Numbered from the stretch's first letter, positions 16-16,723 are shown. The stretch is 64,000 nt of DNA from an uncultured archaeon (GCA_964442255.1 CAYTYC010000002.1:730-64729), one strand, 5' to 3'. The notes: generated by a model from the letters alone, not told the origin. A program made the numbers and translations.

Positions 16-228
16 GTGGCTGAATTGAGGAAATTTTTTGTGCGCAGGGCGCAGGGCAGTGAAGGGAAAGGGCTGGAATTGTTTTCGGAAAACAAAGCGC
101 AAAGCGAATGGAGTTCAGTTTACATGCTCATTGTTTTGATTATCGCCGCCCTGTTGCTTATCGCCGTGATTAAGCCGATGTTCCAGCAGTCCCAGGACAT
201 CGTGAAAACAAGCGGCGATTCAGCCTGA
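16..228 (+). CDS. Small single-TM protein. Possibly 5'-truncated by the window edge or starting at the internal TTG at 79, which would give an MFSENKAQ|SEWSSVYMLIVLIIAALLLIAVI pilin-like N-terminus.
   Basis: The ORF is open to position 1 with no upstream stop. It has one ~22-aa hydrophobic helix. It is co-oriented with, and directly precedes, the pilin-like array. Confidence 0.3.
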   Translation: MAELRKFFVRRAQGSEGKGLELFSENKAQSEWSSVYMLIVLIIAALLLIAVIKPMFQQSQDIVKTSGDSA

Positions 229-238
229 GGGAATTTGA

Positions 239-808
239 ATGAAACAAAAGGGCCAGGAAGCCGCGCCGTTTGAACTGCTGATTGCGGTCATCCTGATGGG
301 TTTTGTCTTGTTTGTGGGATTGACTGCAATGAAGGAACTGGAAAGGCAGCAGTGCCTCGGCAAAGTGAACGAAAAGCTTTCCGAAATGGAGGGCGCAATT
401 GAAAGGGTGGTGAACAACAAGGACACGGTAAGCATTAACTTTAATTTTTCTTCCTGTGCGGCCGACGAAAGCGTGGTGATGAAGGACTGGTTAAATGAAA
501 CCTACTGCGGCGTGAGGTGCGGAAGGGACAAGAAAAGGTGCACGATTCTCACCTATTTTTCGCCTGCCGCGGACGTTGACCCGATTGAAAAATGCCTTGA
601 CATTCCCGCGGCAGTGGAATACGTTACCGAAAAGGACAGGGGCTGCGACATCGGCGAAAACTATTCCCTCATTAATTTGCGTGACACAACTGATGACAAC
701 CCGTTCTCCCAGTATTCCGGAATACCGAAAGGAAAGTACAGGCTCCAGTACCTTCCATTGGAAGGCGACTCAACACCGCATGTCTGCGCGTTCCTTGAGA
801 AAAGGTGA
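239..808 (+). CDS. Archaeal type IV pilin-like protein with a class III signal peptide.
   Basis: ATG start with GAGGGA about 10 nt upstream. The N-terminus is MKQKGQ|EAAPFELLIAVILMGFVLFVGL: a basic leader, a K-G-Q prepilin-peptidase-type site, then a ~20-aa hydrophobic helix. The mature part contains 8 Cys. It is the first of four co-oriented genes with overlapping or abutting boundaries. Confidence 0.6.
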   Translation: MKQKGQEAAPFELLIAVILMGFVLFVGLTAMKELERQQCLGKVNEKLSEMEGAIERVVNNKDTVSINFNFSSCAADESVVMKDWLNETYCGVRCGRDKKRCTILTYFSPAADVDPIEKCLDIPAAVEYVTEKDRGCDIGENYSLINLRDTTDDNPFSQYSGIPKGKYRLQYLPLEGDSTPHVCAFLEKR

Positions 809-812
809 ATGA

Positions 813-1505
813 ATGCTTGGATTCACTTTAAGCAAGCTCAACCTTCTTATACTGGTTATGGCAATTTTCACCATTTCCTCGTTTTTTTTGTTCGGCTTAA
901 GCGAAACCATCGTGAAAAAGGTTGCCGCGGACTTGACCACAAACCACGCGCGAAGCATTTACACCATGGTTAACAGCGAAACCTTCTGCGACTCCAAGGT
1001 TTTTTACCTGCCTGACTCGCTTGACACCAGCCCAAGCGGAAGGGGAGGAGGCTATTACTACGTTTTTTCGGTTAAGGCGCTTGAATACGATAAATCCGGA
1101 AGGCAGTTTTATAAGGTGGCTTTTGTTGTTTCGGACAGGAAAGAGGAAGGCAAAGTGATTGCCGCCTCCTCTTTTGATGTTCCCATCGCGGGGGAAAACG
1201 AAGAGGAGGGAAAGGTTGAAGAAATTGTTTTCTTTGATTATGTGGAACTTGAAAACAGCGTGCAGGGGCAGGGAAGCCCGGTACAGCACGAGGGACACGG
1301 GAAAGGAATTACTTTGGACCCGCAGGACCAGAGAAGGATTGACGCATACGTTTTTTTGAAGGAAACGCATGGGGCAAACAAAACGCTTTACTTTGTTCCG
1401 TGCTCTTCAACCGGCAGGACGTGCCTGGATTTTCTCATGGAAGCGGGGGAGGCGGCGCACCCGGGTGAAGGATTTAAGTGCACTCCTTTGAGGGCGGTTG
1501 AATGA
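813..1505 (+). CDS. Pilin-like protein whose N-terminus resembles the bacterial type IVa G|FTLxE motif.
   Basis: The N-terminus is MLG|FTLSKLNLLILVMAIFTISSFFLFGL, i.e. Gly then F-T-L then a hydrophobic helix, with K at +5 instead of E. It starts 5 nt after the previous stop, and its end overlaps the next ORF by 4 nt. Confidence 0.5.
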   Translation: MLGFTLSKLNLLILVMAIFTISSFFLFGLSETIVKKVAADLTTNHARSIYTMVNSETFCDSKVFYLPDSLDTSPSGRGGGYYYVFSVKALEYDKSGRQFYKVAFVVSDRKEEGKVIAASSFDVPIAGENEEEGKVEEIVFFDYVELENSVQGQGSPVQHEGHGKGITLDPQDQRRIDAYVFLKETHGANKTLYFVPCSSTGRTCLDFLMEAGEAAHPGEGFKCTPLRAVE

Positions 1506-2191
1506 AAAAAATTTTTTTTCCCCTAAAAGGCTTTCCGCGGGGCATTTTTTTCGGCAAAGCCTACCGCAAACCAATGGTTTGCGGAGCCCCTGAAAGGCAT
1601 TCTTTTGCGGGTTTTTCCGGAAAAGGCTTTCTTGGGCCTATTGGCGACGACCTGCCTTCCCTTATTCCCCTTATTTTTGCGTTGATTGTTTTTTTTTCGG
1701 TTTTTTATTCCGCAAACCAGGCCTTTGACAGAAAAACCTCTGTTTTTGAGGACGACATCACCTTAATGCAGATTGGAAATTCCCTGCGTTCAACCGGATT
1801 CATTTCCGGCTACCCTCATTTCAGCGATTTGTGCAATTCATTGAACGTGAGAAGGGTGAAGTTTGTTGCAGGGCTCGTGGACTACATTGAATTCAGGGAA
1901 AGGGAAGGAAAACAATGGCACGAGCTTGACCCTAACACTATTTTCAGCGAAGGCTTTGAGTTTTTTGGGGCGGAAAGCCCTGAGGAAGGGCAAGTGAAGT
2001 TTGTGTGCACAAATGTTCCTGCAGAAGGCAGGTGGGCAGGCTTTCCCGTTATTCCCGCGGAAAAGGAAAATGTTGTCACCCGAACTTATTCTGTTGTCCT
2101 TGATTTCGGGGAATTCCGGGACCCAAAACTTGAAAAGCCCTCGCATTACGTTAAACCAATGCTTTTGGTGATTGCTGCATGGCGGGCTTGA
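1502..2191 (+). CDS. Membrane-anchored secreted protein in the pilin operon. Possibly a minor pilin or pilus-associated protein; the leader is atypical.
   Basis: ATGA overlap with the upstream gene. A basic N-terminus is followed by a hydrophobic helix at about residues 52-75 (LPSLIPLIFALIVFFSVFY) that follows a GKGF motif. Contains several Cys. Confidence 0.4.
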   Translation: MKKIFFPLKGFPRGIFFGKAYRKPMVCGAPERHSFAGFSGKGFLGPIGDDLPSLIPLIFALIVFFSVFYSANQAFDRKTSVFEDDITLMQIGNSLRSTGFISGYPHFSDLCNSLNVRRVKFVAGLVDYIEFREREGKQWHELDPNTIFSEGFEFFGAESPEEGQVKFVCTNVPAEGRWAGFPVIPAEKENVVTRTYSVVLDFGEFRDPKLEKPSHYVKPMLLVIAAWRA

Positions 2192-3006
2192 ATTCTAAAG
2201 GGCAGGCCGCTGTAACCGATGCCTTGTTTTTTTTGATTGTGGTCATGGCCATATCCAGTTTTCTGCTTCTTTTTGTCACGGACTACGGGCAAAACCTGGG
2301 GGGCTTTATTTCAAACCGCTACAAGGCAGACTTCACGACTTCCGCGCTTAAAACAATCCTTTACTCCAATTATCCCCGTGACCCTGATTCAATGAATTTG
2401 GCCGGCGAGCCTGAGGTTGATTACCTTATGGCGTTGGTGAAAGAGGATTACGCGGTTTTGACCACTGAAGAAGCAGGCGACGATAAACATTATAAAATAG
2501 ACGAATACGATGTTGCTTTGGCGCGGCAGATAAGGGAAGTTATGCGCCCAATCAGCGACTCGCATGACTACCTTTTTTACATTAACACAAAAATTGACGA
2601 AAGGGAAGGGGAAGAGATTCCGTTCATGTTTTTGAAGCTCACCAAATTGGAGGTTCTTGAAGTGCCTGGCAAAGCGCCTTCCATTGCCAGGGAAGGAACC
2701 ACTGTTTATTACAGGTGTGCCCCTGGCAGGAGGGCGGACATCACGAATTTCACTGTTTCTTTGGGGGTTTCCGGGAGGACAGTGACTTCCGCGGCTTTCC
2801 CGAAAATAGTGGAAGACGGAAGAGGGGGATATGAGGTGGATGTTGAAAACAGCCTGATTGAGCTTGCCTCATGGCTTTCAACCGAAGTTGACATGCGTGA
2901 AGACAACCCGCAAACAGCTGTTGCGGAGGGAAGGCTTTTCCGTGCGCTTAACTGCACGAAATTCACGAAATTAACGGAGTCAATTCAGCCTATTCCTGAA
3001 CCGTGA
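2179..3006 (+). CDS. Archaeal type IV pilin-like protein with a class III signal peptide.
   Basis: The N-terminus is MAGLNSKGQ|AAVTDALFFLIVVMAISSFLLLFV: a K-G-Q site followed by a hydrophobic helix. It overlaps the previous ORF and carries N-x-S/T sequons (NFT, NCT). Confidence 0.55.
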   Translation: MAGLNSKGQAAVTDALFFLIVVMAISSFLLLFVTDYGQNLGGFISNRYKADFTTSALKTILYSNYPRDPDSMNLAGEPEVDYLMALVKEDYAVLTTEEAGDDKHYKIDEYDVALARQIREVMRPISDSHDYLFYINTKIDEREGEEIPFMFLKLTKLEVLEVPGKAPSIAREGTTVYYRCAPGRRADITNFTVSLGVSGRTVTSAAFPKIVEDGRGGYEVDVENSLIELASWLSTEVDMREDNPQTAVAEGRLFRALNCTKFTKLTESIQPIPEP

Positions 3007-3751
3007 ACCGTTTCCCGCACTTCGGGCACCTGTACTTCATTCTTCCCCCGCCTTTCTCCAAATCTTTTGCGCAAGCCAGACAGAACGCGTTTCCGCAGCT
3101 TGGGCAGTAAATTATTTTTTCCGTTTTTTTTCCGCAGCTTGGGCACAAATTTTTTTCCGGCTCTTTTTCACTGAATTCCTTCAATTCCTTCAGCTCTTCC
3201 CCTTCTTCTTCCATTCCCAGTTCTTTCTCCAAATCACCCAACCCCAGGCCCATTTCATCCCCCATTCCTTTGTTTTCCCCTTCCTTCAGGAGGTCCTCAA
3301 AGCTCTGCTTTTCCTTTGGTTCCCTTAACGGCCTAACTTCATTCCCATCTTCTTTGCCTCTTCTTCCTTTTCCCCCGCTTCTTTCATTCCTTTCAATTTT
3401 CACCTGCGGGAAAATGCTTTCAGCCATCGCGTCAACCTCGTTTTTGCTTGGCTCCCTTTTGTTTCGGTTCTTGAAGTTCCTTATTTCCTGCACTATTCTC
3501 TTTTTTTCTTCCCTGTTTCTTCCCCTGTGCTCCCTGTACAATGATTTTCTTTCCTCCGGGCTTAATCCCTGCAGTTCGTCCACTATTTCTTTTGTGCCTT
3601 CCCTGCCGGAGCCTTCCTCAAACTGCCCGTAAAAGTCCTCGTAGTTTGGCGGAGGCTCGCCCCTTTTTTCGGCCTGCCTGTAAAACCTCTTCAGCCTTCT
3701 TGGAATGTCTTCGTATTCCATTTTCCTTCGGCTAAAAGAAGGCACTTCCAT
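2990..3751 (-). CDS. Highly charged (E/K/R-rich), predicted disordered protein with a C-terminal double zinc ribbon.
   Basis: The C-terminus reads CPSCGKK...YCPSCGNAFCLACAKD...YRCPKCGKRF, i.e. three CxxC pairs. The rest is low-complexity EKR-rich sequence. It is divergent from the pilin array and convergently overlaps its last gene by 17 nt. Confidence 0.45.
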   Translation of the reverse strand: MEVPSFSRRKMEYEDIPRRLKRFYRQAEKRGEPPPNYEDFYGQFEEGSGREGTKEIVDELQGLSPEERKSLYREHRGRNREEKKRIVQEIRNFKNRNKREPSKNEVDAMAESIFPQVKIERNERSGGKGRRGKEDGNEVRPLREPKEKQSFEDLLKEGENKGMGDEMGLGLGDLEKELGMEEEGEELKELKEFSEKEPEKNLCPSCGKKTEKIIYCPSCGNAFCLACAKDLEKGGGRMKYRCPKCGKRFTVQE

Positions 3752-3834: not shown

Positions 3835-4362
3835 ATGAACCGCAACAAGGTTGTAATCGGCTCCGCGCTTCTCGCGGCATTAAGCCTGGTTTTCCAGTTC
3901 CTTCCTTTGTTCTACAAGTTTGGGGACATCCGCATTGACCTGGTCGGCTTTCCCTGGATTTTGTCCTCCCTTGCGTTCGGCTTAAGCGGAGGACTCTTAA
4001 CTTCGGTTATTTCCTCAATTGTGCTGGTTTTCACTCCCTCGGGGTGGGTGGGGGCGACGGCAAAATTTCTTGCGACAGTTCCGATGGTTGTTGTTTTCGG
4101 TTTGCTGAAGTTGAAGGGCAAAACCGCCTTAAAATTCCTTTTCGCGGGCTTCATTTTCGCAACAGTTTTCCGCGCAATTTTCATGTCTTTGTTCAACTAC
4201 TTTTTTGCTTTCCCCGTGTTTTGGGGCGTTCCGGTGGAAGAGGCGCTCAACTATCCTTTGGAGTTGATTGTGTTGCCGAACATTTTTCTTTCCGTGATAG
4301 AGTTTTCCCTTGCATACTTTGTCTTGTTTAAAACAAAGCTGAGGTCCAGGCTTAATGCTTGA
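3835..4362 (+). CDS. Putative ECF-type transporter substrate-binding (S) component.
   Basis: A 175-aa, 5-6 TM hydrophobic protein. It overlaps the downstream tandem ABC ATPase by 8 nt. Confidence 0.5.
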   Translation: MNRNKVVIGSALLAALSLVFQFLPLFYKFGDIRIDLVGFPWILSSLAFGLSGGLLTSVISSIVLVFTPSGWVGATAKFLATVPMVVVFGLLKLKGKTALKFLFAGFIFATVFRAIFMSLFNYFFAFPVFWGVPVEEALNYPLELIVLPNIFLSVIEFSLAYFVLFKTKLRSRLNA

Positions 4363-5581
4363 ATGCGAAAAATTAGGCATTTCTTTCGGGGAAAAAACCG
4401 CCGTAAAAGACTTTTTCCTTTCTTTGCGGGAAGGGGAATCAGTTGGAATAACGGGCGCAAACGGAAGCGGAAAAAGCTCGCTTGCCCTGCTCTTTGCGGG
4501 AATTATCCCGGAATTAATTGAAGCAAGGGTTGAAGGAAAATTTTCCTGCAAAGCCAAAACAGGCCTGATAATGCAGAACCCTTCCTCCCAGTTTTTTGCC
4601 TTAACCGTTAAGGAGGAGACAGGAAGGGCCGATTTAGGCGATTTCCGCGCCCAGCACCTCCTCCGGAAATCCGTTTTTGAGTTAAGCGAAGGGGAAAAGC
4701 AGAAAATAAACCTCATCTCCAACCTTTTGAATGAATCCGAACTGCTAATCCTTGACGAGCCTTTGGAGCTTTTGGACCCTTTTGAGGCGCGCGCCTTTAA
4801 AGAGCTCCTTGAGGAACAAAACAAGACGGTAATCTGGTTTGACAAGGACGAATCCTTTCTTAAGGGAATGAAAACATTTTCCCTTGGAAATCCCGTGGAA
4901 AACCATGAAATACGAAAGAGGGATTCCGCGGAAGAGGCGGAAAACCGTGAACGAAGAAAGGGAAATTCCGCGGAAAAAATTCCGCAAAAAAATTTTTTCC
5001 GCACTGTTTTGGACGCAAATTTTTCCCTGAAATTAAGCGGCTTAAGCCTTCAAAACCTTTCTTTTTCATTGGCTGAAGGCGAAAAGGTCGCACTCATCGG
5101 CGCGAACGGCTCCGGGAAAACATCTTTCCTTAAGTCGCTTGCCGGCCTGCACAAAGTAAGGGGAAAAATTTTTTCTTCCCTTCCCTTAAACCTTGTCCCC
5201 CAAAACCCTGCGCACATTTTTTTCAGGGAAACCGCGTTGCAGGAAATCTGCAGCCCTGAAACAGCGGAATTTTTGGGCATGAATGAATTTTCTTCCTGCG
5301 CCCCTGAAAAATTAAGCAAAGGCCAGCAAAAGCTTTTGTCCCTTGCAAGCTTTCCGGAAAAAAGCGTGATGCTTTTGGACGAGCCAACCACCTGGCTTGA
5401 TTCAGGAAACAAAAGCAGGGTCTATGACTTGATTGAAGGAAGCCCTAATTCAATGCTTGTCGCAACCCACGACAAACGCCTTGCGGAATTGTGCGACCGC
5501 GTGCTTTTATTGAACGGAGGCCTGAGCGAATGTTCCAGTTCAACCCTGAATCGGTTTTTTCGCGGCATCCCGCTGAACTGA
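4355..5581 (+). CDS. ecfA: Fused tandem ABC ATPase (EcfA-EcfA' type), very compact.
   Basis: It has two Walker A motifs (GANGSGKSS and GANGSGKTS), two signature-like motifs (LSEGEKQK and LSKGQQK) and two Walker B motifs (LLILDEP and MLLDEPT). Each half is about 200 aa. Confidence 0.75.
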   Translation: MLECEKLGISFGEKTAVKDFFLSLREGESVGITGANGSGKSSLALLFAGIIPELIEARVEGKFSCKAKTGLIMQNPSSQFFALTVKEETGRADLGDFRAQHLLRKSVFELSEGEKQKINLISNLLNESELLILDEPLELLDPFEARAFKELLEEQNKTVIWFDKDESFLKGMKTFSLGNPVENHEIRKRDSAEEAENRERRKGNSAEKIPQKNFFRTVLDANFSLKLSGLSLQNLSFSLAEGEKVALIGANGSGKTSFLKSLAGLHKVRGKIFSSLPLNLVPQNPAHIFFRETALQEICSPETAEFLGMNEFSSCAPEKLSKGQQKLLSLASFPEKSVMLLDEPTTWLDSGNKSRVYDLIEGSPNSMLVATHDKRLAELCDRVLLLNGGLSECSSSTLNRFFRGIPLN

Positions 5582-6135
5582 AGTTTTTCACGGTGCTTGC
5601 GGTGAGCGCCTTCGCGCTTTTCTTCAGGGACGCCTTTCCGCTTGCAGTCCTTTTCGCATTTTCCCTTATGCTGGTTTTGCTTGCAGGCCCCCGGGCCTTC
5701 CCCAAACTCCTCTTGAGCATTGCGCCTTTCCTTTTCCTCACCGACCTGAGCTTTCTTCTGTTCCTTTCCGCGTACATCCCCAATATTTGGGAAGTAATTA
5801 TTGTCTCCAACCTCCGCATGGCAGCCATCTTTCTTTCCTTCGCGTTTTTTTCCCTGAGCACGGATGTCTTTTCTTTGGTGAAGTTTTTTAAGAGGATTCA
5901 CCTGCCTAAAACAATTTACCTTTCCCTTTACATTGTGTTCCGTTTTTTTCCCGAAATTGAGCGGGATTTCCGTGAAATCAGGCAAATCCAGAGACTCCGG
6001 GGCTACTCCGGGAAAAACCCTTTCTCTTACCTGAAGGCAACCCTTTTTCCGCTGGTTTTCCTTTTGTTTGAAAGGATTGACGAAATTTCAGTCGCCTGTT
6101 ATTTAAGGGAAAAAAGGGGCGAAACCTTCGCTTAG
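5530..6135 (+). CDS. ecfT: ECF transporter transmembrane (T) component, CbiQ/EcfT-like.
   Basis: A multi-TM protein with a conserved cytoplasmic IRQIQRLRG coupling motif. The ORF track starts at 5491; the ATG at 5530 is preferred, although it still overlaps the ATPase 3' end by about 50 nt. Confidence 0.6.
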   Translation: MFQFNPESVFSRHPAELKFFTVLAVSAFALFFRDAFPLAVLFAFSLMLVLLAGPRAFPKLLLSIAPFLFLTDLSFLLFLSAYIPNIWEVIIVSNLRMAAIFLSFAFFSLSTDVFSLVKFFKRIHLPKTIYLSLYIVFRFFPEIERDFREIRQIQRLRGYSGKNPFSYLKATLFPLVFLLFERIDEISVACYLREKRGETFA

Positions 6136-6203: not shown

Positions 6204-6737
6204 ATGGCTTTTCCAACGCCGATTGAGTTAGTGTTGTCTGTTTTCTCCTTTCTTAGGGGCGCGTTTCTCTTTTCTTTGGGCGTTTTTGTGCTGGCTTTCC
6301 TTGCCTCGCTTTTGAACAGGCACTGGTATAAAAGGTTTGACTGGAGCTGGTTCAGGGCGTCCTTTCTTTCCACTTACTTAATCCTGTTTGTTTTCCTGCT
6401 TTTGGTTTACGTTTTGCCGGTTTTTTTCGCTTTCTGGCAGGCAGACCCCGGCTTTATTCCGCCGGAATTCAGTTACACTTTTTCCGAATGGATTTCCATT
6501 GCCTTAACCCTTTTGCTGAAATCCCTTGCACTGGCCTTCCTTTTCGCCCTCCTTTTGATGCCGTTGGAATTCTTCGGGCTTTTTGTGATGGAAAAAATGG
6601 AGAAAAAGCATAAATTCCCGAAGGCCCTAAATATTTTTGCCGGGTGCTTTGCCTCAACCATGGCTGGAACGGCAGTTGTTTTGTTTGTTTTGCCTTTAAC
6701 CATTCCGGCATTAATTCACTTGATTTTCATGGTGTAA
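6204..6737 (+). CDS. Polytopic membrane protein of unknown function. Probably co-transcribed with the giant surface protein.
   Basis: 177 aa with 5-6 hydrophobic helices. It ends 6 nt before the ATG of the 1508-aa gene. Confidence 0.5.
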   Translation: MAFPTPIELVLSVFSFLRGAFLFSLGVFVLAFLASLLNRHWYKRFDWSWFRASFLSTYLILFVFLLLVYVLPVFFAFWQADPGFIPPEFSYTFSEWISIALTLLLKSLALAFLFALLLMPLEFFGLFVMEKMEKKHKFPKALNIFAGCFASTMAGTAVVLFVLPLTIPALIHLIFMV

Positions 6738-6743
6738 AAAAAA

Positions 6744-9700
6744 ATGCGCGCAAAAAAGGATTTCACGGTTTTTTTGCTGGTTTACCTTATTGCGGGCTCA
6801 ATTTTTTCGCCTTTCGCTTTCGCGCAGGAGAACGGAATGCCGGGCATTGACGGCATTTCCTCTGTTTCCCCTGACTTTGCCTGCTCAACCAAATCCCTTT
6901 CCAGGGAAGAAGTGGACGCAATCCATGAAAACGTACTGCAGGAAGGAATTGTGGCCGACGAACTGGGCTCAAGCGCGGCTCAAACTCCCCCTGAAGACAG
7001 GAAAGAGGTTGAAAACGCGACACTCGTTGACCCCGGGGAGGCGGGAGGGCAGGTCACCGCCTTCCAGATGCCCACCCGGATGATGGCGCCAGGCGAAATC
7101 GCTTACCTCTTGAACAGGTCAAGCACGGGCGCTTTTTCCTTTGGAATGCTTTTGAATGATTCCGTGAGGGCGGGAAGGTGCAAGGACCTGAACATGGACT
7201 GCCCCCTGGTTGCGGGCAGCCTTTTCCTGCGCAACAGCGGGGACGGAATAAAGGGCGACTTCATGAACGTCGTTGACCAGGTAAAGGAATGGACCAGCGA
7301 TGAAAAGCCCAACAATTTGACTGAAGAACAAAAGGCGGCAATGATAGTTGAATCCGAAGTATACAACGACAACAATTTCACCGCCCAAACGTTTGTGAGA
7401 ACCCCGGGCAAAATGATTCCAAACTCCCTTTTCACTGACTCCTTTACCGCAACAATGGCGACCTCCTGCGACCACTACCTTTGCTCAATTACAACCTACA
7501 GCATGTTTGACAAATACTTTAACTCCTGGTACAGCATGGACTTAACTTTTGCCAACTTTGGCCCCACAATCGTGGGCGGAATATGGAAAGCCTTTGGCTG
7601 GAGCGCCAGAAGGGGTTTTCTTGACAAATTCGGCCTGAAGTGGGCTGACAAGCTCAGGACAACTTTTTCCAAGCCAACCGATTTCCTTGGAAAAAACCGC
7701 CTTGCAAGATGGAAAGTTGAAAAGGACAGGTACGGCCTGGGGTCGGTCTGGACCCCGATGATTGAGCCAACAACAGGCGCAAGCACCGCGGGTTATTACG
7801 CGTTGAAGGGAGAGCCTTTCAGGAAATGGATGAACGAAATATGGCAGCCCGACGGATTGCTTGGAAAAATCAAGGACCCAAAAATAAAGGGCCACTTTTA
7901 TGATTCTTTCGCGAAATGGAGGGGCTATGTGAGAACGCAAACAGGGCTGATGGACATTGAAAGGGACCGGTTTTACTCAAGGCTTAAAAAGCTTGAATCC
8001 CAGTTTCCGAACGGGGAGCTTAGGGCGTGGAGAAGCAAGGAAGTAGGGGACGTGCAGTTTGAGGCGCTTACTCCGCAGGCAAGAGCCGCGGCGGATGCGG
8101 CACAGCTTGAATACAGCAGGGAGTTCTCGAAATTAATGCAGCGCTTTGATGACGACACCTCTTTTGACATTCCGGAATGGTTTGCGCGCTCAAAGGAATC
8201 AGGCTTATGGAATGCCGCGGTAAAGCAGGAGGGCGGGGAAGCGGTAATGCCGTTAATGGAAAACTCCAGGCACATCCAAAGGATTTTCGGTGAATTCGCG
8301 GAGCACGGCGACTTTTCCACCGTGAGCATGAAAAGCTTTTACAAGACCGCGGACAACGCGGGAAACATTGTGCGCGGCGGAAAAAACCTGCAGCTTTACC
8401 GCCCAAGCTCCCACGCCGTGTTGGCCCATGAAGTGGGGGCGGAAGAATTAAAGCACGCGGTCGCGGGCGGAAAATACGTTGAAAACTTCGCAAAGCTTGA
8501 CACAGGGGAAATGATGTCCATTACGCCGGGAACCCTTGAAATAATTGAGCGCAATACTTCAGGCCCGATTAAAATTTACACGGGCGGATGGGAGGCAGCG
8601 GAAGTGCTTACCCCGAACGAGCTTGCAAGAAGAATAAACGACTATGAATTCCAGACCAGGCTTCACACCGGGTTAAAGGAAAACGCGGAAAGAATGATGA
8701 ACACCTTAAAGGAAAGGGAATGGAAGAGCAGGAGGTATGCTTCGCTTTTGGACCAGGCAATGATGCAGGAAGAGCAGCTCATTAAAAGCTATTTTTCCGT
8801 GAGGGGAGGGGCAAAGTGGACGGCTTACCCTTACGCCTATTATTTCATGAAAAAAGGATTGTTCCAGGAAAACCTTTCAGGGTACATGCTTCCCGAGCAA
8901 TTTTATAAGGTAACCTATTACACGGGGGAAGAGGCAATATACGATGACGCGTTCGTGGACTTTTTTTCCAATGAGGGCTCCGACGACGGGGACATGTTTA
9001 TCCGCATAATCAAAAAGTTTCCATGGAAAATTGTTTTGGATGAGGTCTCCGAACATTACAACCCGATACGGGAATACTATGACCGCTTCACCAAGCACCT
9101 TATCAGGACAAAGGTGGGAAACCTCATTTACTATGCTGCCGGCCCGGAAGATTGCCCGGAATGCGGAATTTCGTTGAAGCCCACTGGCCTTGAATCCTTT
9201 AACGCTTCATTCAAGTCAAACAAGGAATTAACCTCCTTTATTTTGGAGGACACCCCTGAAGACAAGGAAGACGAAGGCCAGTTGCTGATTGCCTTTGGCT
9301 ACCACACAAACCTAAAAGGCGAGGCTCCGGGAGGCGAAGGCAGCCCTGAAAACATTGATTTGGTGAAAGCCAGGAAAGAGGGAACAACCTGCGGGCAAAA
9401 GCTTGAAGAGCTTTTCCGGGGCTGGGATAAGGCGTCAGAGTTCGGCGCAGCGGTCGGCGGGGCGCTTGCATTCAGTGAAACCCTGGGCTATTTTTTGTTC
9501 CATGGAAGCGGAATCTTCGGCAGCGCGGTAACGCAGATTGTGCTTGCCCCAAAATTCCAGGACTGCGTGGACGACAGGGAAGGCTATTACTCGCATTACT
9601 TCATGCCCGCGGAAAAGGAAATGGAGGAAAAAAAGGACTCCGAAAAAAACCTTGAAAAAAACGCCTTAAGCTTTTTTGAGGGCGTGAAGGAAACCTGGGA

Positions 9701-11270
9701 GAACGCTTTCGCTTCCACCGCCGGCCCGACCAATGACGCGGTGAAAAAAGTGGGGGAACAGATTGACCAGTTCGTTGAAAAGCCCTCCAAAAACCGTGTC
9801 GTGGAGGCAATACTTAAAACCCGGGGGCAGACTTCGGGAACGCTTTCCGCAATCGGGCTGTTTTATTACTGGGCGCAGGGAAACTCGGAAATGAATCCCT
9901 TAAAGTATTTGACTGAAGGCGATTTGCTTTTGCTTGACCATGACTCCAACACTTCCGTGAAACTTGACTTTGAAAAAGGCGAAATTGACGTGAACGGGGA
10001 AAAAATTGTGGACTCCGGGGACAACGTTAGAATGTCTTCAATTGACACCCGCATTCCGGGTGTTGTTGTTCCGCAAACCCTGGGCTCAGTCAGGCTGCCG
10101 AAGGACTCCAACGATTTGATGTTTGAAATGAATGCGGAAGGCGAATTAATTGTTTTGCTGGATGAAGTGAAGGACTGCCTGGTTGAGGGAATCCGCGGGC
10201 AAAAGGGAGGGAAATGGGGAACGGAAAATTTGAGCGACGTTTTTGGTTTGGTGAAAAGCGTTTCCACCGACGTTTACCCGAACATTTTTCCGAGGGACGG
10301 AAAAATTTTTGCTGAAGGAATCGGCCCCAGAAAAATCGCCTCCATGGAGGCAGGCGGAAAAATTCCTTTGCTGCAGATTCTGGCTGACAGGCGCTCCAAC
10401 CTTTTGGGGTCTGTGGATGGGGAGCCTTTTGTGGGAAGAATGGAGTCAATTCAAATGGAAAACGGTTACATGGTTTTCAAGCCTGAAACCAGTGAACTGC
10501 TTTTCTGGCTGCGCCGCCCCAAGGACGGAATACTGAACAAGGACGACATAACTGGGCTGAAACCGGCCCTTTCCCGTGAGCTTGGACCGGACGGATGCGA
10601 GGAACTGGGGCTTGACTTTGCAGTGCAGGCCGACCCCAATTCCCCGTATAAAACGGCTGCGGCAGAAAAATTTAACGCAATTCTCACCGATTACGGGCCT
10701 TTTGACGTGATTGACACTGAAAGGTTTTTGTTCATTTTTTATGAGGACGAGGACTGCAACCAGCACTTCAAGGTAATAGACAAGGAAACAGGGGAAGTGT
10801 ATGACTCAATTATTGACTCGATTTCCCAGACCCCTGAGGGAGTGCAGATTAAGACCCAGGACGGGAGAACGCATGACCTTTCCTTTAACGCCGAAAACGG
10901 CGTTCCAGGGGTTAACTACAATGGAATTGACTCCCTGATTAAGGCGATGATGGGCAAAAATGGTTCCTTCTGGTATGACCCGGAAACAGGGAACTGGTAC
11001 ACGGAAAACGGCCAAATTCTTCCCTTGCTTGAGGCCTTCAAACAGCACGGAATACAGACACAGGTCGGGGAAGACGGAAAAGTGCATTCAACGCCTGCAG
11101 GAAACGTGATGACCCTTAATATTGCTGCAGGCTCCCAGCAGCCCCCATGGGCCCTTCCATCAGTGCCGGAAAAGCTGTCCGAATTGTTGCCTTTCCTTGC
11201 GGTTTTGTTTTCTTTCCTTGCAGCAGTGTTTGTGCTGGTGAACCGGAAAAAAAGAATCCGGGCGCTTTAA
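6744..11270 (+). CDS. Giant (1508-aa) cell-surface protein with an N-terminal signal peptide and a C-terminal TM anchor plus basic tail. No recognisable catalytic motifs.
   Basis: The N-terminus MRAKKDFTVFLLVYLIAGSIFSPFAFA|QE looks like a signal peptide. The C-terminus is LPFLAVLFSFLAAVFVLVNRKKRIRAL. More than 20 N-x-S/T sequons are present. It is one uninterrupted ORF with uniform codon usage. Confidence 0.7.
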   Translation: MRAKKDFTVFLLVYLIAGSIFSPFAFAQENGMPGIDGISSVSPDFACSTKSLSREEVDAIHENVLQEGIVADELGSSAAQTPPEDRKEVENATLVDPGEAGGQVTAFQMPTRMMAPGEIAYLLNRSSTGAFSFGMLLNDSVRAGRCKDLNMDCPLVAGSLFLRNSGDGIKGDFMNVVDQVKEWTSDEKPNNLTEEQKAAMIVESEVYNDNNFTAQTFVRTPGKMIPNSLFTDSFTATMATSCDHYLCSITTYSMFDKYFNSWYSMDLTFANFGPTIVGGIWKAFGWSARRGFLDKFGLKWADKLRTTFSKPTDFLGKNRLARWKVEKDRYGLGSVWTPMIEPTTGASTAGYYALKGEPFRKWMNEIWQPDGLLGKIKDPKIKGHFYDSFAKWRGYVRTQTGLMDIERDRFYSRLKKLESQFPNGELRAWRSKEVGDVQFEALTPQARAAADAAQLEYSREFSKLMQRFDDDTSFDIPEWFARSKESGLWNAAVKQEGGEAVMPLMENSRHIQRIFGEFAEHGDFSTVSMKSFYKTADNAGNIVRGGKNLQLYRPSSHAVLAHEVGAEELKHAVAGGKYVENFAKLDTGEMMSITPGTLEIIERNTSGPIKIYTGGWEAAEVLTPNELARRINDYEFQTRLHTGLKENAERMMNTLKEREWKSRRYASLLDQAMMQEEQLIKSYFSVRGGAKWTAYPYAYYFMKKGLFQENLSGYMLPEQFYKVTYYTGEEAIYDDAFVDFFSNEGSDDGDMFIRIIKKFPWKIVLDEVSEHYNPIREYYDRFTKHLIRTKVGNLIYYAAGPEDCPECGISLKPTGLESFNASFKSNKELTSFILEDTPEDKEDEGQLLIAFGYHTNLKGEAPGGEGSPENIDLVKARKEGTTCGQKLEELFRGWDKASEFGAAVGGALAFSETLGYFLFHGSGIFGSAVTQIVLAPKFQDCVDDREGYYSHYFMPAEKEMEEKKDSEKNLEKNALSFFEGVKETWENAFASTAGPTNDAVKKVGEQIDQFVEKPSKNRVVEAILKTRGQTSGTLSAIGLFYYWAQGNSEMNPLKYLTEGDLLLLDHDSNTSVKLDFEKGEIDVNGEKIVDSGDNVRMSSIDTRIPGVVVPQTLGSVRLPKDSNDLMFEMNAEGELIVLLDEVKDCLVEGIRGQKGGKWGTENLSDVFGLVKSVSTDVYPNIFPRDGKIFAEGIGPRKIASMEAGGKIPLLQILADRRSNLLGSVDGEPFVGRMESIQMENGYMVFKPETSELLFWLRRPKDGILNKDDITGLKPALSRELGPDGCEELGLDFAVQADPNSPYKTAAAEKFNAILTDYGPFDVIDTERFLFIFYEDEDCNQHFKVIDKETGEVYDSIIDSISQTPEGVQIKTQDGRTHDLSFNAENGVPGVNYNGIDSLIKAMMGKNGSFWYDPETGNWYTENGQILPLLEAFKQHGIQTQVGEDGKVHSTPAGNVMTLNIAAGSQQPPWALPSVPEKLSELLPFLAVLFSFLAAVFVLVNRKKRIRAL

Positions 11271-11282
11271 AGTTTTTTTTTC
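11271..11282 (+). terminator. T-run terminator for the 1508-aa gene.
   Basis: A T9 run follows immediately after the TAA stop. Confidence 0.3.
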
Positions 11283-11413
11283 CGGCCTTTAAACCCAAAA
11301 TTGGCTGTAAAGAAAAAAAAGTTTTTTTTTGTTTGCTTTCTTTAACAACCCCTTTTCGGGAATCCCGCCTGTTTTAACGGGCGAATGAATTGTTTCCGTC
11401 AGGCCGTTTGCGG

Positions 11414-11428
11414 GAAAAAAAAAAATTC
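11414..11428 (-). terminator. T-run terminator for the convergent PAC2 gene.
   Basis: An A11 run on the plus strand (T11 on the minus strand) lies about 12 nt downstream of the PAC2 stop. Confidence 0.3.
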
Positions 11429-11437
11429 AGCGGATTT

Positions 11438-12184
11438 TTAAGTGTACATCGGGGTTTGTTCCTCGAATTTTTGTACAGTGGAATGCGTTTTCTTTAATTG
11501 CTCCAGCTGTTTCAGCAAATCTTTTTCGGTTTGCTGTGCCTCTTTCATCAGCGGCTCTGTCTTGATTTTTAGCCCCAGGATTCCGTTCAGTTTTTCAATT
11601 AATGCCGCGGCCGCTTTGTAGTCCGCCTGCAGGTTCACGTTTCCCAGTATGGAAAAAGCGTTGAAACGGGTTTTCCTTAACTCCAGCAGTATGAGCGCGG
11701 TTATTCCTGTTGTGATGCCTTCATCTATTATTTCCACATTGTGTTTTTCCATTTCTTTTCTTGATTCATCGTTTGCCGCTATTCCGTAAACTTTTTCGGT
11801 TTTCGGCTCTCCCGTGTTTATTCCCGCAAGGGAAATCACTTTCCCTATTTTTTTTTCGTTTATCCATTTTACGACCGCTTTCGCGACTTTTTCCGTGAAC
11901 TGCCTTGGAATTATTTGCTCGGAAATCAGCACAACCAGTTTTTTTTCTTCGTTCACGTAAATCCTTGAAGGGTAAACCGGAAAGCCCTTGTGTATTCGGA
12001 TTATGGGCACGAACACGTTTGCGTCCATGTGCCCTATTTCCCTGAATTTCAGCCTTTCCACCAGATACTTTGAGGCAATTGTCCCCACCAACCCCATTCC
12101 GGGAAAGCCTTCAATCAGCGTGTAGCCTGAAAGGTCTTTTTGCGTTGTTTCCGTGAAATTCACTTCAATGTGCTGCATGTTCAT
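11438..12184 (-). CDS. PAC2-family protein (proteasome assembly chaperone-like, PbaA/PbaB type).
   Basis: The N-terminal region has the GYTLIEGFPGMGLVGTIASKYLV motif (GFPGxGxVG) typical of PAC2/DUF75 proteins. Length is about 248 aa. Confidence 0.6.
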   Translation of the reverse strand: MNMQHIEVNFTETTQKDLSGYTLIEGFPGMGLVGTIASKYLVERLKFREIGHMDANVFVPIIRIHKGFPVYPSRIYVNEEKKLVVLISEQIIPRQFTEKVAKAVVKWINEKKIGKVISLAGINTGEPKTEKVYGIAANDESRKEMEKHNVEIIDEGITTGITALILLELRKTRFNAFSILGNVNLQADYKAAAALIEKLNGILGLKIKTEPLMKEAQQTEKDLLKQLEQLKKTHSTVQKFEEQTPMYT

Positions 12185-13391: not shown

Positions 13392-14285
13392 TCACCCGAA
13401 CAGGAAGGCCGGGGGAATAAAGTAGAAGGCAAGGCTTAAGGGAAGCAGGAAAAGCGCATACACGAAGGATTTTTTGATGTTTCCTTCCTGCAGGGAAAGG
13501 AAAACGGCCGCCAGCAAAGCGTATTCAGCAACGTAAACCCGGGAGCCGAAAACAGCTGCCTGCAGGAGGGCTTCGCTTGCCTCTTTTCCTGCCCCTAATT
13601 CCCCCAAAAGTTCTGCGGGAAAATCCAGCCCCTGCACCAGCCCGGTGCTCAGCCCTATTATCAGGGGCACCACTATTCCGCCGGCAAAAATGAGGGTGAT
13701 TTTTTCTATCAGCAGACTGGACTGCTGTTCCCGGAAAATGTGCTGGGTTTCCAGCAAATCTTCAGCGGTTTCCCGCAGTAAGGAGCCCATGTCCGCTCCC
13801 GTTTTGTGCCCCACTGAAAGCAGTGAAGCCGCACGGGAAATGGCGGGGCTTCCGGATTCTTTTCCAAGCATTTGAAGCGCGTCTTCAGGCGAAACCCCTT
13901 TCCTTATTTTTGCCCCCGCCTTCAGGAAGTCTTTGGAAAGCGCCCCAAACGATTCTTTTCCCAGGTATTCAATTATTTCGCTTGTAGGGGTTTGCGGAGG
14001 AAAAACGCTTGCCTGCAGAAGCAAATCCGGCACCATTTCCTCTTTTTCTTTTTTCCGTTTTTCGGATGCATAGCCTTCCCACAACCCCTTCAATAATGCG
14101 GGAACAAAGAAAACAACCGGAAGAAAGCACAGCATCCAGTAAAATTCAAAAAACAGTGAAACAACAGCCCACCCGACAACCGCGGTCAGCCCGGGAAGCA
14201 GGAGAGAGTTTGCCGTTTCACCCGGTTCTTTCCTTTCTCCGGGAAACCTTTCCCGAAGACTTTTTTTCCAGGACTTTTCGCCCAA
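13392..14285 (-). CDS. Type IV pilus/archaellum platform protein, T2SSF-domain (TadC/FlaJ-half-like).
   Basis: Polytopic topology with a cytoplasmic domain between TM segments, as expected for GspF/TadC. It is adjacent to a second T2SSF-like gene and to the secretion ATPase. Confidence 0.6.
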   Translation of the reverse strand: MGEKSWKKSLRERFPGERKEPGETANSLLLPGLTAVVGWAVVSLFFEFYWMLCFLPVVFFVPALLKGLWEGYASEKRKKEKEEMVPDLLLQASVFPPQTPTSEIIEYLGKESFGALSKDFLKAGAKIRKGVSPEDALQMLGKESGSPAISRAASLLSVGHKTGADMGSLLRETAEDLLETQHIFREQQSSLLIEKITLIFAGGIVVPLIIGLSTGLVQGLDFPAELLGELGAGKEASEALLQAAVFGSRVYVAEYALLAAVFLSLQEGNIKKSFVYALFLLPLSLAFYFIPPAFLFG

Positions 14286-14294
14286 TTTTTTTTT

Positions 14295-15020
14295 TCACCT
14301 CAAATGCGCGGGGGTGCTGAAACGAATGAATGCAAGGATTGCCGCCGCAATGGACGGAAAGAAAACCGCCACAATAAGCAGAACTGCAATTGGGGTGAGG
14401 CTTAAATCCAGGAAAAGGCTGCCCGCAATAAGGAATACCTGGAACAGTGCGGGGGCAAGCGCGCTGAACGCGATGAACATAAGCGAGTAGAAGACGAGTT
14501 TTGAGGAAAACTTTTTTGACTCATGCTTTTGCTTCAAGAGTATTTCTTTCGCAATTTTTTTCAGGGGCTCTGCCCTGTTTTTTTTCTCTCCGCCGGCGTC
14601 CATTAGGCTTACAATCTGTGAAACCGCCCGCTTAAGCTCAAGTGAATTGTTTTTTTCCGCCATCCTTTTCAGCGCGTCCCTTGTGCTTGCCCCGCATTCC
14701 CTGATTTCTTTCCCGCATTTTTTGAATTCCTTGCCTGCCTTTTCGTATCCTTCTTTCCCGACTGCTTCAATTCCTTCCTCTATTTCCAGCCCTGTGTTCA
14801 GCTTTACCGCCAAAGAAAGCAGGGCCAGGGGAAGCGCTGCCTCCAGTTCCTGCGTTTCCCTTTCTTTTTTGAGTTTTGGGTGAAGGAATTCCGTGAACGC
14901 GCAATATCCTCCGGCAACAATTCCCGCGGCAACAAGGCTTAATGTAAGCTCCCGTAAAGCCAGTGAAGCCAGAAACCATGCCCCCGGAAAAAGTAGCGCA
15001 AGAAAAAACTTTTTTTCCAT
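14295..15020 (-). CDS. Type IV pilus/archaellum platform protein, T2SSF-domain (TadB/FlaJ-half-like).
   Basis: N-terminal TM hairpin, cytoplasmic helical domain, and C-terminal TM bundle. It abuts the ATPase gene (stop/start adjacent at 15020/15021). Confidence 0.55.
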   Translation of the reverse strand: MEKKFFLALLFPGAWFLASLALRELTLSLVAAGIVAGGYCAFTEFLHPKLKKERETQELEAALPLALLSLAVKLNTGLEIEEGIEAVGKEGYEKAGKEFKKCGKEIRECGASTRDALKRMAEKNNSLELKRAVSQIVSLMDAGGEKKNRAEPLKKIAKEILLKQKHESKKFSSKLVFYSLMFIAFSALAPALFQVFLIAGSLFLDLSLTPIAVLLIVAVFFPSIAAAILAFIRFSTPAHLR

Positions 15021-16556
15021 TTAATTTACTTCCTCCAAAAATTGTTTTGCGGTCAGGCCTTTTTTCGCCATTTTTTCCAGCAGTTTTTTTCTTTTCCTGA
15101 TTTCTTTTTGAATTCCTTTTTTGTTTGCCCCAAAGCATTTTTCCAGTGCAGGCAAAACTTTTTTTGGCGAAAATTTTTTCTCCCATTTTTTTTTCCTGTG
15201 GCTGTACTCCCAAAGGGGGTTTAATTCAAGTTTTCCTTCCGGGTTTAGGCATATTTCCGCTATTTCCGCCACTTTCCTTTCCTGTCTTCTTGTCCTGTTC
15301 TCCAAATCCTCTTTTCCCCACCTTTTTTGCACCACAATTAAGTCCATTCCGCCCAATTCAGTTTCATTTATTCCGAATGATTTCAGCCTGTTCACTGTTT
15401 CCCTTGCGCTTTGCGCGTGAAAGGTTGCGGCGCTTCCTTTTCCCTGCCCTGCAAGCAGCGTGTCCGCCATTGCTTTTGCTTCCTCCGGTTTTCTCACTTC
15501 CCCGACAATTATCCTGTCCGGGCGCATCCGCAGCGTTTCGTATATCAGCCCTGACATTGACGCCTTTTTTTCTTCCCCTGTCGTCAGCCTTGCCCAGTGT
15601 TTTTGGGGAAGCCTTAATTCAAGGGTTTCCTCAACGGAAACAATTCGTTCTTCCCGTGGAATAAAGTAAAACAATGCGTTTAGCGTGGTGGTTTTTCCCG
15701 AGGAAGTGTTTCCCGCAACAATTATGCTTGTGTCCGCAAGAAGCGCCATCCAAAGGAACGCCAATTGTTCCGCGTCAATTGTTTCCGTTGAAATCAGGTC
15801 CAGGGGAGTGAAGGGGGTGGGCGAAAATTTCCGTATGTTCAGGCTTGCGCCTTTCGCGCTTAACGGGGAAATGATTGCCTTTATTCTTGAGCCGTCCTTT
15901 AAGTGGGCGTTCAGGCTTGGCCGGCTTAAGCTAATTCTTCTCCCCGAGCCCAGCGCCATCCTGTTCACCAAGTCAATGAAGTTTTTTTCGCCTGGAATGT
16001 AAATGTTTGTTTCGCTCCACCCCATTCCCGCAAGAAACGCCCGGACAGGGTTTTCTTGCCCGAAGCCGGAAACGGTTATTTCCTCTATTTCTTGGTCTTC
16101 CATGAGCGCGTTTAATGGCCCAAAGCCGTAGACAAGCGAGTCCGCCATTTCAGGCAGGGTTTCTTTCTGTTCTTCGCTTAACTGTATGCCGTTTTTTTCG
16201 CAGTATTCCCTGAAAGTGAGCTTCAGTTCTTTTTCTTTTCCGTTTTCCGTTTCCTTTGACTGGAATTCTTTCACGGCTTCCTTAACCAGAAGCGCTTCCT
16301 GCGCGCTTAATTCCTGCCATCCCTGGACTGCGTAATAAAGTGAGCCGTTTTCCTGTTTTCTCAGCTCTTTTCCTTCTTCTTTTCTTATCAGCCTTTCGCC
16401 GTTGAATTGCCTGCAAATTATTCCCCACCCGAGCGCTTTCCCTATTTCCTTGGTTCTTTTCCCGCATTCCGGCAGGCATTCACTGCACTCTTCACAGCTT
16501 TTTTCTTCTTCCACAAAAGAATTCGGAGAACCGGAGAGCCTTTTAAACTCTTTCAT
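15021..16556 (-). CDS. FlaI/TadA/VirB11-family secretion ATPase for type IV pilus-like assembly, with an N-terminal Cys4 motif.
   Basis: Walker A is IIVAGNTSSGKTTTLNAL. The Asp/His boxes and the overall length are typical of the family. The N-terminus carries CEECSECLPEC (CxxCxxCxxxC). The ORF track extends to 16625 through a GC-rich spacer; the ATG at 16556 (MKEFKRL) is preferred. Confidence 0.85.
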   Translation of the reverse strand: MKEFKRLSGSPNSFVEEEKSCEECSECLPECGKRTKEIGKALGWGIICRQFNGERLIRKEEGKELRKQENGSLYYAVQGWQELSAQEALLVKEAVKEFQSKETENGKEKELKLTFREYCEKNGIQLSEEQKETLPEMADSLVYGFGPLNALMEDQEIEEITVSGFGQENPVRAFLAGMGWSETNIYIPGEKNFIDLVNRMALGSGRRISLSRPSLNAHLKDGSRIKAIISPLSAKGASLNIRKFSPTPFTPLDLISTETIDAEQLAFLWMALLADTSIIVAGNTSSGKTTTLNALFYFIPREERIVSVEETLELRLPQKHWARLTTGEEKKASMSGLIYETLRMRPDRIIVGEVRKPEEAKAMADTLLAGQGKGSAATFHAQSARETVNRLKSFGINETELGGMDLIVVQKRWGKEDLENRTRRQERKVAEIAEICLNPEGKLELNPLWEYSHRKKKWEKKFSPKKVLPALEKCFGANKKGIQKEIRKRKKLLEKMAKKGLTAKQFLEEVN

Positions 16557-16723
16557 TCGCTTATTGCCGTGCCGGCTGTTCCCGGCAGTGGAATCCCGCC
16601 TGCTCGCGGGAGTGGAGTGTGCCATACTCCGTATGGCACTGGCTCGGCTTTCGCCTCGCTATCATGCCTGTTTTCGTCCGGCCGGGAGTGAGAGAGAGGC
16701 GTAATTAGAACGGCAGTTGCCCC
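16557..16723 (-). promoter_or_regulatory. GC-rich structured intergenic element between the nucleotidyltransferase stop and the ATPase start. It may be a 5'UTR, an attenuator, or a small RNA.
   Basis: The 167-nt spacer is far GC-richer than other intergenic DNA. It holds a perfect 9-bp hairpin GTGCCATAC-TCC-GTATGGCAC (16619-16639) and a CCCGC-CTGCTC-GCGGG hairpin (16596-16611). No T-run terminator is present. Confidence 0.3.

Follow-up and report, generated by a model that had tools for sequence, protein, structure and literature searches.

A 64,000-nucleotide (nt) stretch of DNA from an uncultured archaeon (GCA_964442255.1, CAYTYC010000002.1:730-64729; referred to as a whole as the window) opens with five consecutive genes, O1 to O5, each encoding an N-terminal hydrophobic helix, which raises the question of whether they encode the subunits of a type IV filament and, if so, of which kind. 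The Iainarchaeota, like other DPANN archaea, are ultra-small and have not been cultured; many of these organisms are thought to depend on contact with other cells. Their surface filaments are prime candidates for making such contact, but in annotations the subunits figure as hypothetical proteins. We consider it probable that the region holds the pilin subunit genes of an Iainarchaeota-specific (Diapherotrites, DPANN) type IV filament operon. Seven unannotated families, present in ~50 or more genomes, are thereby assigned to one conserved operon, for which we predict the likely major subunit, a four-member minor-pilin block, and the processing sites. We regard the operon as a lineage-specific version of a system whose kind is already known. 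It is of use in annotating genomes and in considering DPANN surface biology, and it does not overturn the current view of archaeal pili but extends it to a poorly known phylum.

An initial annotation of the window had noted a tandem array of four to five pilin-like genes at 16-3006, with N termini for some of them, and we recovered five open reading frames (ORFs) with the positions and N termini given (Table 1). O1 and O2 are separated by 10 nt and O2 and O3 by 4 nt, O3 and O4 overlap by the 4 nt of an ATGA, and O4 and O5 overlap by 13 nt. Given these two short gaps and two overlaps, O1 to O5 form one operon. Public sequence from this organism, in a short contig that reaches 700 nt upstream of the window, shows that the longest O1 ORF begins 17 nt before the window, although a nearer TTG start is possible, and that O1 is preceded by a sixth pilin-like gene, O0. 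For O4, translation may start either at the ATG at position 1502, which overlaps the O3 stop codon and yields a 42-amino-acid (aa) leader, or at the ATG at position 1574, which yields an 18-aa leader. Scans of the window for tRNAs and Rfam families gave no matches.

The 46 database homologues of O3 are all “hypothetical” proteins of unclassified archaeal metagenome-assembled genomes, and those of O2 are also only “hypothetical” proteins, from Diapherotrites or an unclassified archaeon. When one genome per GTDB species was scanned with the O3 alignment, 52 loci were retrieved, including those of the complete genome GW2011_AR10 (AR10) and of Ca. Iainarchaeum andersonii; the loci with a taxon name belong mostly to Candidatus Iainarchaeum or Diapherotrites, and many others are labeled just “archaeon.” A HMMER search with O4 against 1.84 billion representatives yielded 141 matches (cluster representatives), in most of which the alignment begins 2 to 20 residues into the protein. 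Each of the 21 matches that we read carries a variable basic leader ending in [KR][GA]↓[FY], where the arrow marks the predicted cleavage site. Other archaeal genes of the window include one for a PAC2 proteasome chaperone.

Searching the ORFs of the orthologous loci with the window proteins revealed a near-invariant gene order: a T2SSE ATPase (~760 aa), a T2SSF-domain membrane protein (~780 aa), two further pilin-like proteins, Om1 (~150 aa) and O0 (~180 aa), then O1 (~55 aa), O2, O3, O4, and O5, a Zn-ribbon protein on the opposite strand, a 177-aa membrane protein, and a protein of ~1500 aa. The array proposed in the initial annotation is thus real, since its order is kept in ~50 species-level Iainarchaeota genomes, with 46 to 60 orthologues per gene. 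Given that pilin-like genes and the ATPase and platform genes precede O1 in the orthologous loci, the array extends upstream and the window begins in the middle of the operon. O2-O3-O4-O5 always form a tight four-gene block that is never interrupted, whereas other genomes show a hot spot for insertions at the junction of O1 and O2, with gaps of 0.4 to 1.9 kb, suggesting that there are two transcription units. At this junction, syntenic locus L002 carries a PIN/MazE toxin-antitoxin pair and an extra O2 paralogue (8102-8763). Across genomes, identity within the first 25 mature residues is 49 to 78% (60 to 78% in the five window families, 72% in O1), and within the heads it is 27 to 33%. Such a conserved predicted helix followed by a divergent head is the usual pilin pattern.

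The T2SSE ATPase and the T2SSF-like platform are encoded directly upstream of the pilin genes in 25 to 31 orthologous loci, and in AR10 they match their models with E values of 7.6e-17 (T2SSE) and 2.7e-5 (T2SSF). Among solved structures, the ATPase is nearest to afGspE of Archaeoglobus (5e-30), followed by CpaF (2e-27) and FlaI (4e-22). An archaellum was considered and rejected, as no archaellin, FlaH, or FlaCDE genes are found in the loci.

A second type IV filament machinery lies in the window at 13392-16625 on the minus strand and consists of a 534-aa T2SSE ATPase (Pfam, 8.5e-33) and two TadC-like platforms of 241 and 297 aa (T2SSF, 4.5e-9 and 1.5e-11). No pilin genes adjoin it, and a six-frame scan revealed no class III sites near it. 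Its two-platform layout matches the Epd-like “System 1” reported in DPANN archaea (10.64898/2026.04.22.720090). This machinery may rely on the first operon for its pilins or on pilin genes located elsewhere.

Predicted class III signal sites are present in four of the five window genes and read K-A↓Q in O1, K-G↓Q in O2 and O5, and K-G↓F in O4. In O1, the site is N-K-A↓Q-S-E-W-S-S-V-Y-M-L-I-V-L-I-I-A-A-L-L-L-I, leaving a mature part of 43 aa, and in O4 it is S-G-K-G↓F-L-G-P-I-G-D-D-L-P-S-L-I-P-L-I-F-A-L-I-V-F-F. With positions counted from the predicted cleavage site, the family consensus sequences are [KR]G↓Q-A-F-S-V-F-K-L-L-I-A-A-V-V-A for O0, [RK]A↓Q-S-E-W-S-S-V-Y-M-L-I-V-L-I-I-A-A-L-L-L-I-x-V-I-K-P-M-F for O1, [KR]G↓Q-E-[SA]-A-P-F-E-L-L-I-A-V-I for O2, [KR]G↓F-[IL]-G-P-I-G-D-D-L-P-S-L-I-P-L for O4, and [KR]G↓Q-A-A-V-T-D-A-L-Y-F-L-L-I-V for O5. 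In six of the seven families, position -1 is G or A in 97 to 100% of the sequences (plus S in O1), position -2 is K or R in 81 to 97% (81% in O0, 97% in O1, 93% in O2, 92% in O4, and 95% in O5), and position +1 is invariant, being Q in 100% of the O0, O1, O2, and O5 orthologues. Among 40 orthologues of O1, 97% have A, G, or S at -1, and Y+8, I+15, K+25, M+27, and F+28 are invariant. The 51 orthologues of O2 have G or A at -1 in 99% of cases and E+7 in 98%, and A+4, F+6, F+17, and V+18 are invariant. All 41 orthologues of O4 have G at -1 and F or Y at +1, together with an invariant G+3, I+5, G+6, D+7, D+8, P+10, S+11, L+12, and P+14. In the families other than O3, the leaders are basic but variable, differing in sequence and ranging in length from 4 to ~60 residues. 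Conserved residues at -2, -1, and +1 behind variable basic leaders are the signature of class III (prepilin) signals rather than of signal anchors. A hydrophobic H domain follows the sites, and in O4 it begins at +12, past the invariant FxGPIGDDLPS.

These sites are concentrated at the start of the window. In a six-frame scan of the 64 kb, the pattern [KR][GA][QF] followed by a hydrophobic stretch occurred at four sites, namely, those of O2, O4, and O5 and one internal to a polytopic flippase; O1 was missed because its mature part comprises only 43 aa. The class III signal prediction proposed in the initial annotation as a check, carried out here with a FlaFind-like rule, pointed the same way, with 7 of 497 ORFs matching, three of them in the first 3 kb, and with polytopic membrane proteins among the matches outside the array. 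The clustering of sites in the first 3 kb exceeds chance.

The initial annotation had placed cleavage after the glutamine (KGQ↓) and had seen in the array a mixture of archaeal KGQ and bacterial GFTL leaders. We correct the former to KG↓Q, the cleavage pattern of the Methanococcus EppA substrates (PMC3875500, PMC4371748). Given that the KGQ proteins would be cut before Q, every predicted site in the array is of the form G/A↓X, and a mixture of archaeal and bacterial leaders is not supported; the actual mix within this operon is +1 Q (O0, O1, O2, and O5) versus +1 F (O4). Prepilins in general need G, A, or S at -1, and archaeal ones depend critically on a charged residue at -2 (PMC4371748). A +1 Gln marks the Methanococcus EppA substrates, whose KGQ or RAQ sites are cut before Q (PMC4371748, PMC3875500); EppA needs +1 Q, FlaK does not accept it, and PibD is tolerant (PMC4371748). 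The presence of both +1 Gln and +1 Phe substrates therefore suggests that the cognate peptidase is PibD-like in breadth or that two enzymes are involved. In some O4 homologues, the leader contains tandem cleavage-site units: in P0232, five copies of GDNKSRGFVGFL precede the real KGF-IGPIGDD, and in the homologue at 10747-11490 of locus L024, KGFLRS is repeated in the leader.

The predicted structures also support this assignment. AlphaFold models show a helix at residues 2 to 53 followed by a sheet in O3 (predicted local distance difference test [pLDDT] score of 90) and a helix at residues 6 to 62 followed by an alpha/beta head in O5 (pLDDT of 81), so that the structural modeling proposed in the initial annotation gave for both proteins the pilin “lollipop” of a 52- to 57-residue helix and a beta-rich head. 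The O3 head is nearest, weakly, to GspI, EpsI, and XcpV; a Foldseek search of the O3 model against the PDB returned only noise, and the sequence profiles of O3 and O5 found nothing meaningful in the PDB. The mature O2, O3, O4, and O5 contain 8, 4, 2, and 2 cysteines, respectively, and several of these are invariant. Their description as Cys-rich thus holds for O2 (4.2%, against a background of 1.2%) but not for O3, O4, or O5. The absence of any obvious mutual resemblance, on the other hand, was borne out, with hhalign probabilities below 2% among O2 to O5, and paralogy of these four was rejected. The sole paralogues in the system are Om1 and O0, which are like O2 only in the N-terminal helix. 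Each family conserves particular charges in this helix, namely, K/R+7 in O0, E+3 in O1, E+2 and E+7 in O2, K+5 in O3, D+7 and D+8 in O4, and D+6 in O5, suggesting that the subunits may pair through specific electrostatic contacts.

Known pilin types were considered for O1. A Tad/Flp pilin was rejected, since O1, although small, carries Q-S-E-W-S-S-V-Y and lacks the Flp motif (G↓xxxxEY); Flp_Fap is matched by 3 of the 142 family members, at an E value of 0.41 or worse. The major pilin of the competence pseudopilus, ComGC, was also rejected: the window copy of O1 matches the ComGC model weakly (E value of 1.2e-3, 19 bits), far under the cutoff of 75 bits, and among the orthologues the best E value is 3.1e-4, with 19 to 19.5 bits for the two O1 matches listed.

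Several observations weigh against the assignment to a pilus. No filament has been seen, the organisms being uncultured, and the ATPase and platform genes of this genome would lie beyond the window, where synteny places them. No pilin model of Pfam or NCBIfam recognizes the window proteins or any of the 142 members of the seven families, none of which is represented in these databases, and their archaeal pilin and class III models give no match at an E value of ≤1. The hydrophobic stretch of O4 from +12 onward is atypical for a pilin, and the alpha/beta, Cache/PAS-like head of O5 fits Cache-type sensor domains better than pilins. In addition, no A24 prepilin peptidase gene was detected, either with Pfam in the 64-kb window or with a motif search of 737 kb of syntenic loci. 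The Pfam scan (Peptidase_A24) covered 59 of the 62 window ORFs of at least 150 aa, the remaining three overlapping scanned genes on the opposite strand, and the motif search looked for GxGDxK, strict and relaxed, in polytopic ORFs of the window and 56 loci.

The lack of a peptidase gene nearby and of pilin hidden Markov model (HMM) matches, together with the missing class III site of O3, could indicate that these are ordinary Sec signal-anchored (type II) membrane or secreted proteins, clustered by chance, which remain unprocessed and form no filament. However, a signal anchor gives no reason for the near-fixed G/A at -1 and K/R at -2 and the invariant Q or F at +1 before the helix, and both the fixed adjacency to a T2SSE ATPase and a T2SSF platform and the pilin-like helix-plus-head models speak against this reading, which we judge to be very improbable. 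A different possibility is that the array encodes class III surface proteins without a long pilus, forming a short pseudopilus, bindosome-like or ComG-like, that binds substrate, DNA, or a host, with the Cache-like head of O5 and the other large heads acting as ligand-binding modules. DPANN archaea have reduced genomes and are host-dependent, which would suit such a structure. The order of ATPase, platform, small pilin, and larger pilin-like genes mirrors comGA-GG, 17 of 30 O1 orthologues match ComGC weakly, and archaeal binding proteins with class III signals are reported to be widespread (10.64898/2026.04.22.720090). Against this, the ComGC matches (19 versus 75 bits) reflect the hydrophobic helix, and Pfam reveals no substrate-binding-protein domain. 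The data do not tell a short filament from a long one; we regard the short structure as unlikely. The reading that we consider most likely remains that of the initial annotation, namely, class III pilin-like genes for one major and several minor subunits, and in the orthologous loci these genes stand behind a T2SSE ATPase and a T2SSF-like platform.

Within this operon, O3 requires separate consideration, as the initial annotation had likened its MLG N terminus to that of a bacterial-type prepilin. If O3 were a true G↓FTL(I)E prepilin acquired from bacteria, it would be cleaved after Gly3, and in support of this, its F-T-L-S-K-L-N-L-L-I-L-V-x-A-I is akin to the bacterial alpha1-N consensus, and the residue before the F is G in the window copy, as it is in 55% of the orthologues. 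However, the N terminus, M-L-G-F-T-L-S-K-L-N-L-L-I-L-V in the window and near-invariant within the family, is not a class III signal and fails each of the tests for a bacterial prepilin. In all 51 orthologues, the start codon (ATG in 41, TTG in 7, and GTG in 3) lies three codons before the invariant F-[TI]-L-S-K-[LM]-N-L-L-I-L-V. A miscalled start that hides a basic leader is ruled out by this constant start at -3 together with an in-frame stop at most six codons upstream in 31 of the 51. The leader is always M-[LMIF]-x and uncharged, with L, M, I, or F at -2 in 51 of 51 sequences and K or R in none. At -1, 28 sequences have G, 12 have D, 6 have A, 4 have E, and 1 has S, so that D or E (31%) stands where processing requires G, A, or S, with a charged -2 in archaea (PMC4371748). 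Position +5 is K instead of E, the N_methyl and TIGR02532 models give no match to O3 at an E value of ≤1, and all O3 homologues found are on Iainarchaeota-type archaeal contigs. We thus find the bacterial origin scarcely credible; judged from its sequence, the likeness of O3 to G↓FTLIE is superficial, with neither a basic leader nor a conserved peptidase site, and the genuine G↓F prepilin predicted in this operon is O4, not O3. This leaderless protein is the one truly odd feature of the operon.

Taken as a pilus operon, the locus suggests the following course of assembly. The precursors would insert into the membrane through the N-terminal hydrophobic helix, and an A24-type prepilin peptidase encoded elsewhere would strip the short basic leader after G or A. 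In O0, O1, O2, and O5, the residue behind the cut would be Q, and in O4 it would be F. Extraction and polymerization of the subunits would then fall to the dedicated ATPase and the TadC-like platform, presumably encoded just upstream of the window. O1 is the candidate filament-forming major pilin, because its mature form is barely more than one helix and it is among the best conserved of the seven families. By analogy with the bacterial minor sets GspH-I-J-K and FimU-PilVWX, which act in this way, and with the five or more minor pilins of euryarchaeal loci, O2, O3, O4, and O5, unrelated families with putative disulfide-bearing heads and even cysteine counts, most likely form a minor-pilin complex that primes or caps the filament. 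O3 would be made almost mature, with a three-residue stub, and, having no peptidase site, would either join this complex unprocessed or stay behind as a membrane anchor. More tentatively, and with considerable doubt on our part, O3 may be a peptidase-independent leaderless pilin that serves as the obligatory first (tip-nucleating) or last (anchoring) subunit and pairs electrostatically with the acidic N-terminal helices of O2, O4, and O5. If true, type IV filaments would be primed or terminated here in a manner not described before, within a phylum-wide seven-pilin machine that possibly serves host attachment by ultra-small archaea. The leaderless O3 also offers a natural test of how far pilin function depends on leader removal.

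Archaeal type IV pilus loci typically comprise an ATPase, TadC, one major pilin, at least five minor pilins, and an S-layer-like protein with a C-terminal transmembrane segment, with conserved cysteines (PMC4858521), and the predicted gene content described here fits this general plan. The array is like the Epd pili of Methanococcus maripaludis (major pilin EpdE/MMP1685, minor pilins EpdA to EpdD) in the G/A-ending signal with +1 Gln, in the very small major pilin (62 aa after processing there versus 43 aa here), in the several larger minor pilins, which are essential for assembly there and conserved here, and in the archaeal-type secretion ATPase; EppA/Epd systems are marked by the combination of a +1 Q and a small major pilin (PMC3875500, PMC4371748). 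Unlike Epd, to which it has no detectable sequence or HMM relationship, the array lacks a +5 Glu and instead has acidic residues at +3 (O1), +2 and +7 (O2), and +6 (O5), and one member has a +1 Phe (O4) and one is leaderless (O3). The organization also differs, as the Epd system has two platform genes and scattered pilins, whereas seven subunit genes share one operon with a single large platform gene here.

The bacterial minor sets GspH-I-J-K, FimU-PilV-W-X, and ComGD-GG also consist of four unrelated pilin-fold proteins encoded beside a major subunit. As in GspHIJK, where GspK lacks E5, one member breaks the charge rule of the N-terminal helix (O3, with K5), and the order of ATPase, platform, and pilins is that of comG. 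These sets differ from the array in that there is no sequence homology, the ATPase is archaeal (afGspE-, CpaF-, or FlaI-like), and the signals carry K or R at -2, so that a tip-complex function for O2 to O5 is suggested by analogy. In the archaellum, FlaF and FlaG (ArlF and ArlG) have an anchoring role. With an archaellin- or pilin-like N-terminal hydrophobic helix and a beta-rich head, they serve as accessory parts and not as the body of the filament (PMC4858521). They are a possible functional analogue of the unprocessed O3, although no sequence similarity was found and O3 belongs to an operon of the pilus type, in which FlaH, FlaCDE, and archaellins are absent.

Makarova, Wolf and Koonin (2019) described some DPANN type IV pilus loci with a FlaI-like ATPase, TadC, and, as unrecognizable “dark matter” pilins, proteins that bear signal peptides but do not detectably resemble known pilins (PMC6393860); examples appear in a figure of that paper, and whether an Iainarchaeota locus is among them could not be established. 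A 2026 survey of archaeal filaments lists DPANN only under Aap-like systems, System 1, and subsystem 4A (10.64898/2026.04.22.720090). The literature searched contained only general statements and no description of the Iainarchaeota operon, its seven families, or the leaderless O3.

Table 1. Pilin-like genes and conserved neighbors at the start of the window. Arrows mark predicted cleavage sites.
Feature	Position	Strand	Product	Remarks
O0	Just upstream of O1, outside the window		Sixth pilin-like protein, 184 aa	N terminus MDSKGQAFSTFKLLIAAVVA; predicted site MDSKG↓QAFSTFKLLIAAVVA
O1	1-228 in the window (ORF listed 16-228)	+	Putative small pilin	Truncated by window edge; N terminus ...ENKAQSEWSSVYMLIVLIIAALLLI
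O2	239-808	+	Pilin-like protein, 189 aa	N terminus MKQKGQEAAPFELLIAVIL; predicted site MKQKG↓QEAAPFELLIAVILMGFV
O3	813-1505	+	Leaderless protein with predicted pilin fold, 230 aa	N terminus MLGFTLSKLNLLILV
O4	1502-2191	+	Pilin-like protein, 229 aa	Predicted class III site internal, ...SGKGFLGPIGDDLPSLIPLIFALIVFF
O5	2179-3006	+	Largest pilin-like protein, 275 aa	N terminus MAGLNSKGQAAVTDALFFLIVVMAI; predicted site MAGLNSKG↓QAAVTDALFFLIVVMAI
Zn-ribbon protein	2990-3751	-	Lys/Glu-rich, cytoplasmic protein, 253 aa	C-terminal double zinc ribbon; Pfam Zn-ribbon matches
Membrane protein	6204-6737	+	Polytopic membrane protein, 177 aa	Conserved downstream neighbor
Secreted protein	6744-11270	+	Secreted protein, 1508 aa	N-terminal signal; C-terminal “LPSVPE” followed by transmembrane helix and basic tail

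The surroundings of the array are in part conserved with it. The Zn-ribbon gene converges on O5 with a 17-nt overlap, and this placement is kept in ~45 loci; its product may have a regulatory role or may act in the cytoplasm as a partner of the pilus system. The pair encoding the 177-aa and 1508-aa proteins, neither of which has a Pfam or NCBIfam match, is syntenic in ~25 to 30 loci. The 1508-aa protein is likely an S-layer-like protein or adhesin of the same surface island. In 25 orthologues, N-L-P-S-L-P-E followed by a transmembrane helix and an R/K tail is kept, akin to an exosortase/archaeosortase sorting signal. An exosortase-like gene of ~180 aa (PF09721, E value of 8.5e-5) adjoins the pilus ATPase gene in 11 syntenic loci. 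This “PSLPE-CTERM” and mini-archaeosortase may be an undescribed pair tied to the pilus island.

Between the Zn-ribbon and 177-aa genes, the window carries an energy-coupling factor transporter (3835-6135, plus strand) made up of an S component, a double ATP-binding cassette (ABC) ATPase, and a CbiQ-like T component. Since the two flanking genes are adjacent in the closest relative, this module looks inserted into the surface island. Downstream of the second pilus machinery, a 664-aa protein with a Dictyostelium-type Cys-rich repeat (PF00526, 1.1e-8) is encoded at 17378-19372 on the minus strand and may be another surface protein. From ~20000 to 62000 extends a 40-kb glycosylation island with more than 25 glycosyltransferases, methyltransferases, radical SAM enzymes, flippases, PMT_2-type transferases, and a carbamoyltransferase, and at ~20 kb the G+C content falls from ~0.48 to ~0.43. 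This island could be the source of glycans for the pilins or the surface protein; alternatively, the block may have been acquired horizontally.

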